Below, one piece after another: positions 3,001-7,118 of a DNA stretch of 7,118 nt (the stretch's first letter is position 1; each line of letters begins with the position of its first letter). Source of the stretch: a virus (taxonomy: Duplodnaviria > Heunggongvirae > Uroviricota > Caudoviricetes); the IMG/VR virus record IMGVR_UViG_2548876695_000012, one strand, 5' to 3'. The position numbers are program-made.

Positions 3001-6000
3001 GCCGACTTGTTCTGATTATTGGAAATCTTCTTTGCCCTCCAGTGTGAGGGCCTTTTTATATGCATACCAATAACGCTTCACTCGAGGCGTTTTTCGTTAT
3101 GTATAAATAAGGAGCACACCATGCAATATGCCATTGCAGGGTGGCCTGTTGCTGGCTGCCCTTCCGAATCTTTACTTGAGCGAATCACCCGTAAATTACG
3201 TGACGGATGGAAACGCCTTATCGACATACTTAATCAGCCAGGAGTTCCAAAAAATGGATAAAACACTTATGGCTATCCAGACTAAATTCACTATCGCCAC
3301 TTTTATTGGCGATGAAAAGATGTTTCGTGAAGCCGTCGACGCTTATAAAAAATGGATATTAATACAGAAACTGAGATCAAGCAAAAGCATTCACTACCCC
3401 CCTTTCCTGTTTTCCTAATCAGCCTGGCATTTCGCGGGCGATATTTTCACAGCCATTTTCAGGAGTTCAGCCATGAACGCTTATTACATTCAGGATCGTC
3501 TTGAGGCTCAGAGCTGGGAGCGTCACTACCAGCAGATCGCCCGTGAAGAGAAAGAGGCAGAACTGGCAGACGACATGGAAAAAGGCCTGCCCCAGCACCT
3601 GTTTGAATCGCTATGCATCGATCATTTGCAACGCCACGGGGCCAGCAAAAAAGCCATTACCCGTGCGTTTGATGACGATGTTGAGTTTCAGGAGCGCATG
3701 GCAGAACACATCCGGTACATGGTTGAAACCATTGCTCACCACCAGGTTGATATTGATTCAGAGGTATAAAACGAATGAGTACAGCACTCGCAACGCTGGC
3801 AGGGAAGCTGGCTGAACGTGTCGGCATGGATTCTGTCGACCCACAGGAACTGATCACCACTCTTCGCCAGACGGCATTTAAAGGTGATGCCAGCGATGCG
3901 CAGTTCATCGCATTGCTGATCGTCGCCAACCAGTACGGTCTTAATCCGTGGACGAAAGAAATTTACGCCTTTCCTGATAAGCAGAACGGCATCGTTCCGG
4001 TGGTGGGCGTTGATGGCTGGTCCCGTATCATCAATGAAAACCAGCAGTTTGATGGCATGGACTTTGAGCAGGACAATGAATCCTGCACATGCCGGATTTA
4101 CCGCAAAGACCGCAATCATCCGATCTGCGTTACCGAGTGGATGGATGAATGCCGCCGCGAACCATTCAAAACCCGCGAAGGCAGAGAAATCACCGGACCG
4201 TGGCAGTCGCATCCCAAACGGATGTTACGGCATAAAGCCATGATTCAGTGTGCCCGTCTGGCCTTCGGATTTGCTGGTATCTATGACAAGGATGAAGCCG
4301 AGCGCATTGTCGAAAATACCGCATACACTGCAGAACGTCAGCCGGAACGCGACATCACTCCGGTTAACGATGAAACCATGCAGGAGATTAACACTCTGCT
4401 GATTGCCCTGGACAAAACATGGGATGACGACTTATTGCCGCTCTGTTCCCAGATATTTCGCCGCGACATTCGCGCATCGTCAGAACTGACACAGGCCGAA
4501 GCAGTGAAAGCTCTTGGATTCCTGAAACAGAAAGCCTCTGAACAGAAGGTGGCTGCATGACACCGGACATTATCCTGCAGCGTACCGGGATCGACGTGAG
4601 AGCTGTCGAACAGGGGGATGATGCGTGGCACAAATTACGGCTCGGCGTCATTACAGCTTCAGAAGTTCACAACGTGATAGCAAAACCCCGTTCAGGAAAG
4701 AAATGGCCTGACATGAAAATGTCCTACTTCCACACCCTGCTTGCTGAGGTTTGCACCGGTGTGACTCCGGAAGTTAATGCCAAAGCACTGGCCTGGGGAA
4801 AACAATACGAGAACGACGCCAGAGTCCTGTTTGAGTTCACCTCCGGCGTGAATGTTACTGAATCCCCGATTATCTATCGCGACGAAAGTATGCGTACAGC
4901 CTGCTCTCCCGATGGTTTATGCAGTGACGGCAACGGCCTTGAACTGAAATGCCCGTTTACCTCCCGGGATTTCATGAAATTCCGGCTCGGTGGTTTCGAG
5001 GCCATAAAATCGGCTTACCTGGCCCAGGTGCAGTACAGCATGTGGGTGACGCGAAAAGATGCCTGGTACTTTGCCAACTATGACCCGCGTATGAAGCGTG
5101 AAGGACTGCATTATGTCGTGGTTGAGCGGGATGAAAAGTACATGGCGAGTTTTGACGAGATGGTGCCGGAGTTCATCGAAAAAATGGACGAGGCACTGGC
5201 TGAAATTGGTTTTGTATTTGGGGAGCAATGGCGATGAAGCATCCTCACGATAATATCCGCGTAGGCACGATCACTTTCGTCTACTCCGTTACAAAGCGAG
5301 GCTGGGTATTTCCCGGCCTTTCTGTTATCCAAAATCCACTGAAAGCCCAGCGGCTGGCTGAGGAGATAAATAATAAACGAGGGGCTGTATGCACAAAGCA
5401 TCTCCTGTTGAGTTAAGAACGAGCATTGAGATGGCACATAGCCTTGCTCAAATTGGAGTCAGGTTTGTGCCAATACCAGTAGAAACAGACGAAGAATTTC
5501 ATACGTTAGCCGCATCCCTTTCACAAAAGCTGGAAATGATGGTGGCGAAAGCAGAAGCAGATGAGAGAGACCAGGTATGACAACCACTGAATGCATTCTT
5601 CTGGCAGCGGGCTTTATATTCTGTGTGCTTATGCTTGCCGACATGGGACTTGTTCAATGACACCTCAGCAAGAAAACGCCCTTCGCAGCATTGCCCGTCA
5701 GACTAATTCTGAAATCAAAAATGCCAGACAGCAGTTTCCGGATAAAAACGTCGATGACATTTGCCGTAGCGTACTGAAGAAGCACCGCGAAACGGTAACG
5801 CTGATGGGATTCACACCGACTCACTTAAGTCTGGCAATCGGTATGTTAAACGGCGTCTTTAAGGAACGGTGAACATGAAAAGCAAAATCATCAGGGAGCT
5901 ACAGGCTCCTTTTTTATTATTCGCATTCACCCTCAAGCGTATTAACCAACAATTCAGGGATTAATGAAAGATGGCAGATATCATTGATTCAGCATCAGAA

Positions 6001-7118
6001 ATTGAAGAATTACAGCGCAATACAGCAATAAAAATGCGTCGCCTGAACTACCAGACTGTATCCGCAACTCATTGTTGTGAGTGTGGCGATCCGATAGATG
6101 AACGAAGACGCCTGGCAGTTCAGGGTTGTCGGACTTGTGCAAGTTGCCAGGAGGATCTGGAGCTTATCAGTAAACAGAGAGGTTCGAAGTGAGCGAAATT
6201 AATTATCAGGCACTGCGTGAAAAGGCAGAAAAAGCAACTAAAGGAAGCTACATCGTAGGGCATACATCTGTTAACCAGCACGGCAATTTAACAGGAGTTT
6301 TTGTTTGCCAAAAATGGAAAGGAGAACCCGGTGGCGTGATTGCGGAATGTCATGTTAACTGCCTGATTGAATCAGATGCTCAGGCTTATGCAAACGCTGA
6401 ATTCATAGCAGAGGCTAACCCGGCTACCGTGCTGGAACTGCTGGATGAACGGGAAAGAAACCAGCAATACATCAAACGCCGCGACCAGGAGAACGAGGGG
6501 ATTGCGCTTACGGTTGGGAAGCTGCGTGTTGAGCTTGAAGCAGCAGAGAACAACCTTATTGATAGTGAATGCCATGTTGCTGAACTGGAAGAAGCTCTAC
6601 GCGATAAGCTGGCGTTACTTGAAGCCTCAGAAAAGCGCAACGCAAAATTACAAAGCGAGAATGCATACATCCGCAACCGGTACAAAGAACTGGACCTATT
6701 AATCGGGAAAAACATTCTGGTCATGCAGGCTGCCATTATCGAATGGCAGGCAACTGGCGACGCTAAGAGCGGACTAGCATGGATTTATAACACACTGTTT
6801 GGCCCTGGCGAATTACCGGACGAATCTGAGAAAGATGCCCAGGCCTACTTTAATCGCAAATATGCACCGATTGACGAAAAGCTTATGGCGCTTCACAAGT
6901 GGTTTTGGGAACAAAGTGAAGCCAAGCGCGCCGCTGGCATTCGCATCAAAGGAGAGTGAGATGGCGTTAACACACCGAGAACTCTGTCAGATTGCGTACA
7001 AGTTCCTTAAGCGCAACGGGTTCAAGGTTTGCTTTCATGACCGCTTTGAACCGCCCCGGAAATCCTGGAGACTAAACTCCCTGAGAAAGAGGTAAACAGG
7101 ATGACTAAAAATACTCGT

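Follow-up and report, generated by a model that had tools for sequence, protein, structure and literature searches.

A predicted TraR/DksA-family zinc-finger protein, orthologous to lambda Orf73, encoded in the pL operon of a 933W-type lambdoid prophage

Results

Organization of the locus

The window, meaning the whole stretch of DNA that was analyzed (7,118 nucleotides; IMG/VR record IMGVR_UViG_2548876695_000012), corresponds to the pL operon of a Stx-like prophage of the 933W type, with pL, nutL and N intact. The candidate pL promoter, TTGATA-17-CATTAT, was located by pattern scan at 1739-1767 on the + strand, lies over an inverted repeat resembling an operator (CCAATAGTTC...GAACTATTGG) and is identical in phages 933W and phi24B; it was assigned as pL because it stands upstream of nutL and N. 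The nutL site (1785-1852, + strand) is 100% identical to the annotated nutL of 933W and of phi24B, and within it a boxB-like hairpin, GCGCTGACAAAGCGC, can be read from the sequence at 1838-1852. The N antiterminator gene (2017-2400, + strand) is intact, its product being identical to 933W N at 126 of 127 positions. Over 1700-2020, an interval that takes in the candidate promoter, nutL and the start of N, the window shows 100% identity to both 933W and phi24B.

The gene of interest, orf73, lies far downstream of N on the same strand, at 5971-6192 (+), and consists of 73 codons running from ATG to TGA. Directly upstream of it is an orf61-like gene (5591-5872, + strand; PHROG_303, 141 bits), which encodes 93 amino acids if translated from the ATG at 5591 or 71 if translated from the ATG at 5657, the latter being the form given by PGAP, and which aligns to lambda orf61 with a difference of frame. 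Directly downstream is an ea22-like gene (6189-6959, + strand; Pfam Ead_Ea22, 123.5 bits), whose GTG start overlaps the orf73 stop codon in the sequence GTGA; the junction in lambda is the same, and the overlap suggests that orf73 and ea22 are translationally coupled. Pfam matches in the region also include DUF1317 and DUF1382. The order exo-orf60a-orf63-orf61-orf73-ea22 matches that of lambda, and the gene order of the region is annotated equally in lambda, BP-4795, 933W and phi24B; the ea10/ssb gene carried by the latter three is, however, absent from the prophage of the window. PGAP/RefSeq names the orf73 product a "TraR/DksA family transcriptional regulator".

Only the orf73 frame is open across 5971-6192, each of the other five being interrupted by stop codons; coding in another frame or on the other strand was rejected on this ground, and the antisense ORFs of 53 amino acids are regarded as mechanical. 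Nucleotide alignment with lambda orf73 gives 8 synonymous and 4 non-synonymous differences and a dN/dS of 0.127, a ratio from which it is concluded that the gene is under purifying selection. An out-of-frame ATG at 5964, followed through 7 codons (ATGAAAGATGGCAGATATCATTGA), overlaps the start of orf73.

Upstream hairpins and ribosome binding site

Four terminator-like hairpins found by pattern scan separate orf73 from N on the + strand. Two stand upstream of cIII at 3034-3091, and a third, of 9 pairs, lies within orf60a at 5298-5320, where its sequence corresponds to the published predicted terminator t1 (PMC4195576). The fourth occupies the interval between orf61 and orf73 (5893-5921, including the T-run) and is listed for lambda and phi24B as predicted terminator t2 (PMC4195576). 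Its stem-loop at 5893-5911 has 8 pairs followed by TTTTTTATTATT, folds at -10.2 kcal/mol (z = -2.5; 4 of 200 shuffled sequences fold equally well) and, with its T-run, is 100% identical in lambda and BP-4795 and identical also in phi24B. The terminator that the first-pass annotation had placed ahead of the gene is thus present as a predicted element. That annotation had also given the gene its own ribosome binding site, and here the agreement is partial: an AGGGA sequence does stand at 5956-5960 (+ strand), 10 nt upstream of the ATG, and is identical in lambda, but it is only weakly Shine-Dalgarno-like, with a predicted pairing energy to the 16S 3' end of -4.9 kcal/mol as against about -7 kcal/mol for gam, bet, exo, orf60a, orf63 and ea22. 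An Rfam scan of the window returned the cIII thermoregulator only, with nothing near orf73.

Family assignment

The product of orf73 matches the Pfam family PF01258 (zf-dskA_traR) over residues 33-64 with 37.8 bits (E = 1.9e-9), above the gathering cut-off of 24.9 bits, and matches PHROG_54, "DksA-like zinc-finger protein", over residues 1-71 with 91.4 bits (E = 6e-26); its sequence matches in the PDB are YbiI (2kgo) and TraR (5w1s, 6n57). The description of the locus as encoding a TraR/DksA-like zinc-finger protein of 73 amino acids is therefore confirmed by the very profile search that had been proposed as its check. The score against the narrower NCBIfam model TIGR02419 (C4_traR_proteo, TraR subfamily), 55.1 bits, falls below the cut-off of 59.7 bits. 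This shortfall was considered as evidence against TraR membership and rejected: F TraR scores 80.5 bits, whereas lambda Orf73, whose activity has been validated experimentally, scores 54.7 bits and is likewise below the cut-off, which is accordingly judged to be conservative. By these scores, lambda-type Orf73 proteins sit at the edge of the TIGR02419 model.

The residues characteristic of the family were examined in an alignment of 9 homologues that reaches down to 31% identity and includes F TraR. The predicted zinc site has the form CxxC-x17-CxxC (C35-C-E-C38 and C56-A-S-C59), and these four cysteines are invariant. The C4 finger described earlier is thus present, but the protein has six cysteines in all, and the two not mentioned in that description are C36 and C53, the latter found in 6 of the 9 diverse phage homologues. 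The signature GxPIxExRR, also noted earlier, is borne out as G39-D-P41-I42-D-E44-R-R46-R47, and within it E44, R46 and R47 align with E46, R48 and R49 of the TraR ExxRR motif, where the R48/R49-equivalent arginines contact the rim helices and beta'Si3 of RNA polymerase (PMC9239242). At the N-terminus, D3-I-I-D6-S-A8 corresponds to the motif DxxDxA, with D6 and A8 invariant and D3 present in 8 of 9 homologues. The full set of invariant positions is D6, A8, C35, C38, I42, E44, R46, G52, C56, C59 and E64; the last of these, an acidic residue, falls in a helix (56-70) of a single-sequence AlphaFold2 model that is of low confidence (pLDDT 55, pTM 0.26). A Foldseek search of the PDB with this poor model gave no match at E <= 0.001, a result that speaks neither for nor against a TraR-like fold; for lambda Orf73, a published AlphaFold model built from an MSA is reported to have a pLDDT of 93 (PMC8614690).

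Judged by its sequence, the assignment of the product to the TraR/DksA zinc-finger family is correct. A role as a DNA-binding zinc-finger regulator was rejected, since proteins of the TraR family act on RNA polymerase without binding DNA and since DxxDxA at the N-terminus is a motif confined to secondary-channel factors.

Comparison with lambda Orf73, F TraR and DksA

Lambda Orf73 (NC_001416, 30395-30613, complement) also has 73 amino acids and is 95% identical without gaps (69 of 73 residues), and the two proteins share all six cysteines, DxxDxA and ExxRR. The four substitutions (Y27H, T29A, V30I and A49V) are conservative and spare every hallmark residue. The 100 nt upstream of the gene, including the hairpin and the Shine-Dalgarno region, also match, and identity together with synteny makes orf73 the orthologue of lambda orf73. 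The phage backbones differ, however, that of the window being of 933W type (stk, 933W-type N, nutL), and the ea22 gene of the window is the long form of 256 amino acids, in contrast to 182 in lambda. Among the Stx phages, the window protein differs from phi24B Orf73 by I4L, Y27H, T29A and V30I (69 of 73 identical) and is 94.5% identical to the 933W copy, the Orf73 proteins of these phages being described as "putative C4 zinc finger protein"; its exact sequence recurs in several records of Stx1 and Stx2a phages.

TraR of the F plasmid (PDB 5W1S, 6N57) is likewise a protein of 73 amino acids with the same architecture, although only 31% identical: DxxDxA, CxxC-x17-CxxC, ExxRR and the acidic residue of the C-terminal helix all align, whereas the two additional cysteines are found in window Orf73 and not in TraR, and traR belongs to a conjugation operon rather than a phage early operon. 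E. coli DksA shares the zf-dskA_traR zinc finger but is about twice as long, has a coiled coil that bears the acidic tip, and is fully active only with ppGpp; in Orf73 and TraR, by contrast, there is a single N-terminal helix, and both proteins are independent of ppGpp.

Discussion

Lambda Orf73 was characterized in 2022 (PMC9239242). Since publications on lambda and phi24B already cover the gene and its family, the mechanism and the upstream hairpin, the locus has little value as a discovery, and its practical worth is in annotation. The lambda protein competes with DksA for RNA polymerase, showing that the two share a site, complements a dksA null mutant, and inhibits rrnB P1 with an IC50 of ~50 nM without ppGpp, a value equal to that of F TraR; D3N and D6N variants lose activity (PMC9239242). 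In effect, two of the checks proposed in the first-pass annotation, transcription in vitro from promoters of the rRNA and amino-acid classes and the phenotype in a dksA-null strain, have been carried out on lambda Orf73 (PMC9239242), and the functional reading given in that annotation is supported by the work on this 95%-identical orthologue. The suggestion that such proteins mimic the combined effect of DksA and ppGpp holds for inhibition only: TraR activates host and tra promoters, whereas lambda Orf73 shows little or no activation of amino-acid promoters, or of thrABC, argI and rpoH P3, and does not activate phage lytic promoters (PMC9239242). Mimicry by lambda Orf73 is therefore incomplete and extends to the inhibitory half only. 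We infer that the window allele behaves like lambda Orf73, and that it would bind RNA polymerase at the DksA site and inhibit rRNA promoters independently of ppGpp.

Very probably, then, orf73 of the exo-xis region of this 933W-type E. coli lambdoid prophage encodes a TraR-family modulator of RNA polymerase that would be transcribed from pL by N-dependent read-through and would raise phage yield. By extension from experiments with lambda Orf73 and F TraR, Orf73 would bind RNA polymerase, but not DNA, at the DksA site, such that the N-terminal helix, as in F TraR, would bring DxxDxA to the region of the active site, the arginines of ExxRR would link the zinc-bound globular domain to the rim helices and beta'Si3, and betaSi1 would be contacted by the C-terminal helix. 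The kinetics of the open complex would thereby be shifted without ppGpp, with inhibition of rRNA and ribosomal-protein promoters. Upon loss of repressor, orf73 would be transcribed as a distal gene of the pL operon by N-modified polymerase able to pass the hairpins at about 3034-3091, 5298-5320 and 5893-5911, and the protein would steer host transcription away from ribosome synthesis, so that the host would grow more slowly and the yield of phage would be higher. In lambda, orf73 is expressed from pL at 5-20 min after induction, and with its product the host grows more slowly and the burst is 3-4 fold larger (PMC9239242). With pL, nutL and N intact and the four terminator-like hairpins lying between N and orf73, it is reasonable to expect that expression depends on antitermination; however, phi24B orf73 mRNA is abundant despite an identical hairpin (PMC4195576), which weakens the case for strict dependence.

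An alternative that leaves binding to RNA polymerase unchanged would assign Orf73 a mainly pro-lysogenic role or a block of host replication initiation, rather than a gain in lytic yield; in the replication version, Orf73 would act within the lambda "bin" cluster, to which ea22, ea8.5 and orf55 also belong. This is possible but doubtful. Deletion of orf73 in lambda and phi24B lowers host survival after infection and reduces lysogenization, as summarized in PMC8614690, and an earlier deletion study, cited in PMC8614690 and discussed in PMC9239242, reportedly ascribed a pro-lysogenic role to orf73 and found reduced yield; earlier work, as cited in PMC9239242, links orf73 and its neighbors to inhibited initiation of host DNA replication, and ea22, which overlaps orf73 through GTGA, is itself reported to be pro-lysogenic. 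However, both a clean D3A D6A mutant and an in-frame deletion of lambda orf73 lower yield 3-4 fold after induction, and any drop in dnaA mRNA is weak (PMC9239242); the authors of that study, who note that polar effects of their alleles on genes downstream are not expected, put the conflict down to the method by which orf73 was inactivated and/or to the way in which lytic growth was started.

It is unlikely that orf73 and ea22 form a separate unit, independent of pL and N, that is transcribed from its own promoter, p1, overlapping the hairpin. BPROM predicts p1 in both lambda and phi24B, and in phi24B the mRNA of orf73 and ea22 exceeds that of upstream genes, above all after induction with H2O2 (PMC4195576), but lambda orf73 mRNA is less abundant than that of upstream genes (PMC4195576), and lambda deletions in which orf73 is fused to pL show phenotypes that depend on pL (PMC9239242). 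The published prediction is moreover of a weak promoter (-35 TCATCA, -10 TTTTATTAT), its -35 element matching TTGACA at 3 of 6 positions, and a sigma-70 scan of 5200-6287 gave no promoter on the + strand. It is very improbable that orf73 is a silent relic of a decaying prophage, giving no functional protein in its host, even though the identical chromosomal copy has frameshifted and truncated genes in the int-proximal part of the prophage and an IS3-family element between the repressor region and stk, and even though the match to the Shine-Dalgarno sequence is weak. Against decay stand the intact ORF with its low dN/dS and the integrity of pL, nutL and N, which are identical, or nearly so, to their counterparts in 933W and phi24B, both inducible phages, and lambda orf73, with the same weak Shine-Dalgarno sequence, is highly expressed by ribosome profiling (PMC9239242).

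Oxidative stress induces Stx prophages. A speculative idea, to which we give very little credence, is that C36 and C53 could make lambda-type Orf73 redox-sensitive, such that oxidative stress would alter the fold of the zinc domain and its effect on RNA polymerase; if true, this could explain inhibition without activation by lambda Orf73. The idea draws on the pattern of cysteines, on a remark that folding might change with the additional cysteines (PMC9239242) and on the expression data for phi24B under H2O2, a treatment that lifts orf73 and ea22 transcripts above those of the other genes in the region (PMC4195576).

Of 5426 complete E. coli genomes, 3296 (61%) contain a sequence with at least about 90% identity to orf73, and a single genome has up to 6 such copies. 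Many strains therefore hold several ppGpp-independent modulators of RNA polymerase, and upon prophage induction the multiple copies would switch on together.

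Family membership of Orf73

The open reading frame at 5971-6192 (+ strand; 73 codons, ATG start, TGA stop) translates as MADIIDSASEIEELQRNTAIKMRRLNYQTVSATHCCECGDPIDERRRLAVQGCRTCASCQEDLELISKQRGSK, and no alternative frame is open across this interval, stop codons occurring in all five others. The first-pass annotation had described a 73-aa product with a C4 zinc finger and a GxPIxExRR signature, and direct reading of the translation confirms both: the zinc-site cysteines are C35xxC38 and C56xxC59, separated by a 17-residue spacer, and the signature is G39-x-P-I-x-E-x-R-R47. The translation also begins with D3xxD6xA8, an element absent from that description. 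In an alignment of nine homologues with identity down to 31%, F TraR among them, the invariant residues are D6, A8, C35, C38, I42, E44, R46, G52, C56, C59 and E64.

Profile searches place the protein in the TraR/DksA zinc-finger family, the HMM check proposed earlier being passed with 37.8 bits against Pfam zf-dskA_traR (gathering score 24.9); PHROG_54 ("DksA-like zinc-finger protein") scores 91 bits over residues 1-71, and among PDB sequences the hits are YbiI of E. coli (2kgo) and F-plasmid TraR (5w1s, 6n57). The NCBIfam TraR subfamily model TIGR02419 gives 55.1 bits, below its cut-off of 59.7; this cut-off excludes the proven lambda protein too, because validated lambda Orf73 scores 54.7 (F TraR scores 80.5). 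AlphaFold2 run on the single Orf73 sequence reached a pLDDT of only 55, and Foldseek with that model returned nothing meaningful from the PDB; for lambda Orf73, an MSA-based model in the literature has a pLDDT of 93 (PMC8614690). Together with the 69/73 identity to lambda Orf73, the Pfam, PHROG_54 and motif results support the TraR-family assignment, and at the sequence level Orf73 carries every TraR hallmark that could be tested.

Orf73 has six cysteines in total, the extra ones being C36 (codons C35-C36 at 6073-6078) and C53 (6127-6129). C36 is confined to lambda-like proteins, and C53 is kept in six of nine diverse phage homologues, including those of Enterobacter, Klebsiella and Vibrio phages. 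In the lambda protein, according to a published suggestion, these two residues might affect the globular domain and how it contacts beta'Si3 (PMC9239242).

Orthology with lambda Orf73 and probable function

In tblastn searches of phage genomes, Orf73 is 100% identical to ORFs of several Stx1 and Stx2a phages and, across its full 73 residues, shares 94.5% identity with the product of the complement ORF at lambda 30395-30613, which is lambda orf73. The four differences (Y27H, T29A, V30I, A49V) leave the hallmark residues untouched; of the nucleotide differences, 8 are synonymous and 4 non-synonymous (dN/dS = 0.127). The "putative C4 zinc finger protein" of phi24B is identical at 69 of 73 positions. 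At about 90% identity or better, the 222-nt gene is found in 3296 of the 5426 complete E. coli genomes, and one genome can have as many as six copies. In the chromosomes that match window positions 1-7047, PGAP names the gene "TraR/DksA family transcriptional regulator". The lambda RefSeq record (NC_001416) holds no CDS for the experimentally characterised orf73, ea22 alone being annotated under the match.

Experiments on lambda Orf73 itself, which is 95% identical, are available (Gopalkrishnan et al., mBio 2022; PMC9239242); they include those proposed in the first-pass annotation, and the finding is already known. Purified lambda Orf73 competes with DksA for binding to RNA polymerase of E. 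coli and inhibits rrnB P1 without ppGpp (IC50 about 50 nM, equal to TraR) as well as rpsT P2; D3N or D6N abolishes most of its activity. It rescues a dksA-null strain on minimal medium. Host growth is slower when the protein is made from pL or a plasmid, and its presence increases phage yield after mitomycin C induction 3-4 fold; ribosome profiling detects its expression from pL 5-20 min after induction. It activates thrABC, argI and rpoH P3 little or not at all, and the lambda lytic promoters tested are unaffected (PMC9239242). Of the proposed mimicry of DksA plus ppGpp, the inhibitory half is therefore documented for the lambda orthologue but the activating half is not; the observation is confirmed and its interpretation supported.

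By orthology, Orf73 most likely acts as lambda Orf73 does. If the roles described for TraR (PMC9239242) carry over, the secondary channel of RNA polymerase would give its N-terminal helix access to the active-site region; its zinc domain, with R46/R47, would touch the rim helices and beta'Si3, and its C-terminal helix betaSi1. The outcome would be a shutdown of translation-machinery synthesis in a cell committed to lysis; whether orf73 serves the lytic or the lysogenic course is disputed.

Probable expression from the leftward early operon

The window corresponds to the pL (leftward early) operon of a lambdoid prophage of the 933W type. In order, it contains stk (315-1361), a terminator-like hairpin (1527-1548) at the position of the 933W stretch annotated tM, a promoter-like TTGATA-17-CATTAT (1739-1767) across an operator-like inverted repeat, the boxB-like hairpin GCGCTGACAAAGCGC (1838-1852) in nutL, and N (2017-2400), an intact ORF of 127 aa. 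Positions 1700-2020 are 100% identical to 933W and phi24B, in which the stretch matching 1785-1851 is annotated nutL, and N is identical to that of 933W at 126 of 127 residues. After N come cIII, kil, gam, bet, exo, orf60a (Pfam DUF1317), orf63 (DUF1382), the orf61-like gene, orf73 and an Ea22-family gene; the order around orf73 is common to annotated lambda, BP-4795, 933W and phi24B.

A pattern scan finds a hairpin of 8 pairs at 5893-5911, followed by TTTTTTATTATT, in agreement with the terminator noted earlier ahead of orf73. Its folding energy is -10.2 kcal/mol (z = -2.5; 4 of 200 shuffles fold equally well), and it is letter-for-letter the predicted terminator t2 of lambda and phi24B (Bloch et al., 2014; PMC4195576), whose t1 corresponds to a hairpin within orf60a (5298-5320). 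Over the 100 nt preceding orf73 there is one base of difference from lambda, hairpin and AGGGA being identical. This AGGGA (5956-5960), 10 nt 5' of the ATG, is the ribosome-binding site claimed earlier, but it is weak, with a predicted anti-SD pairing of -4.9 kcal/mol versus about -7 for gam, bet, exo, orf60a, orf63 and ea22, and is the weakest element of the confirmed observation. An out-of-frame 7-codon mini-ORF (5964-5987; ATG AAA GAT GGC AGA TAT CAT TGA) starts 7 nt 5' of the orf73 ATG, nearer to AGGGA than orf73 does.

Two routes of transcription can be weighed. Bloch et al. proposed a BPROM-predicted promoter, p1, overlapping the hairpin, and reported orf73 and ea22 mRNA to be high in phi24B, especially with H2O2; in lambda, orf73, ea22 and ea8.5 mRNA lies below that of the upstream genes (PMC4195576). 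The proposed p1 -35 matches consensus at 3 of 6 positions, and a + strand scan found no sigma-70-like site at the p1 position. Alternatively, N-dependent read-through of the four terminator-like hairpins between N and orf73 would bring about orf73 expression; with these hairpins in place and pL, nutL and N all intact, this is the most economical model.

Neighbouring genes and prophage context

The stop of orf73 and the GTG initiating the ea22-like gene overlap within GTGA (6189-6192). Lambda has the same arrangement, and it suggests translational coupling; the ea22 SD lies within the end of orf73 and, at -7.2 kcal/mol, is better than that of orf73. The orf61-like gene (5561-5872) differs from lambda orf61 in having TGA at 5588-5590 where lambda has GGA and an A-run at about 5715-5721 one base shorter, so that its frame continues to 5872 and its product has 93 aa (ATG 5591) or 71 aa (ATG 5657), as against 61 aa in lambda. 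In phage RefSeq records the 93-aa product is called 'cell division protein ZapA', a name that looks unsupported, since Pfam gives it no significant match, only a sub-threshold 17-bit match to an unrelated viral zinc-binding domain. The 369-nt ea10/ssb, located between a 156-aa ORF and cIII in 933W, BP-4795 and phi24B, is absent here (2930-3120), two terminator-like hairpins (3034-3051, 3072-3091) filling the gap; Rfam Lambda_thermo, the cIII thermoregulator, matches at the cIII start (3108-3166; 88.5 bits, gathering score 50).

Several E. coli chromosomes, one from a strain typed O45:H2, carry prophages with 100% identity to positions 1-7047, and O103:H2 strains match at 98.8%. The last 71 bases (7048-7118) differ from the identical STEC chromosomes and match other prophages, such as JLK-2012 in O55:H7, marking a mosaic junction just downstream of ea22. 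In the chromosomal stretch from NZ_CP027388 (L003), a 69-nt 'incomplete' pseudogene at the 3' end of N (L003 8332-8400) is all that is annotated of this gene, apparently in error, given the intact ORF and its near-identity to 933W N. The identical prophage in that chromosome has an IS3-family element (L003 4805-6018) between stk and the repressor-side genes, a LexA-family repressor and a DUF3024 gene, and this copy may be partly degraded, since its int-proximal genes are frameshifted or truncated.
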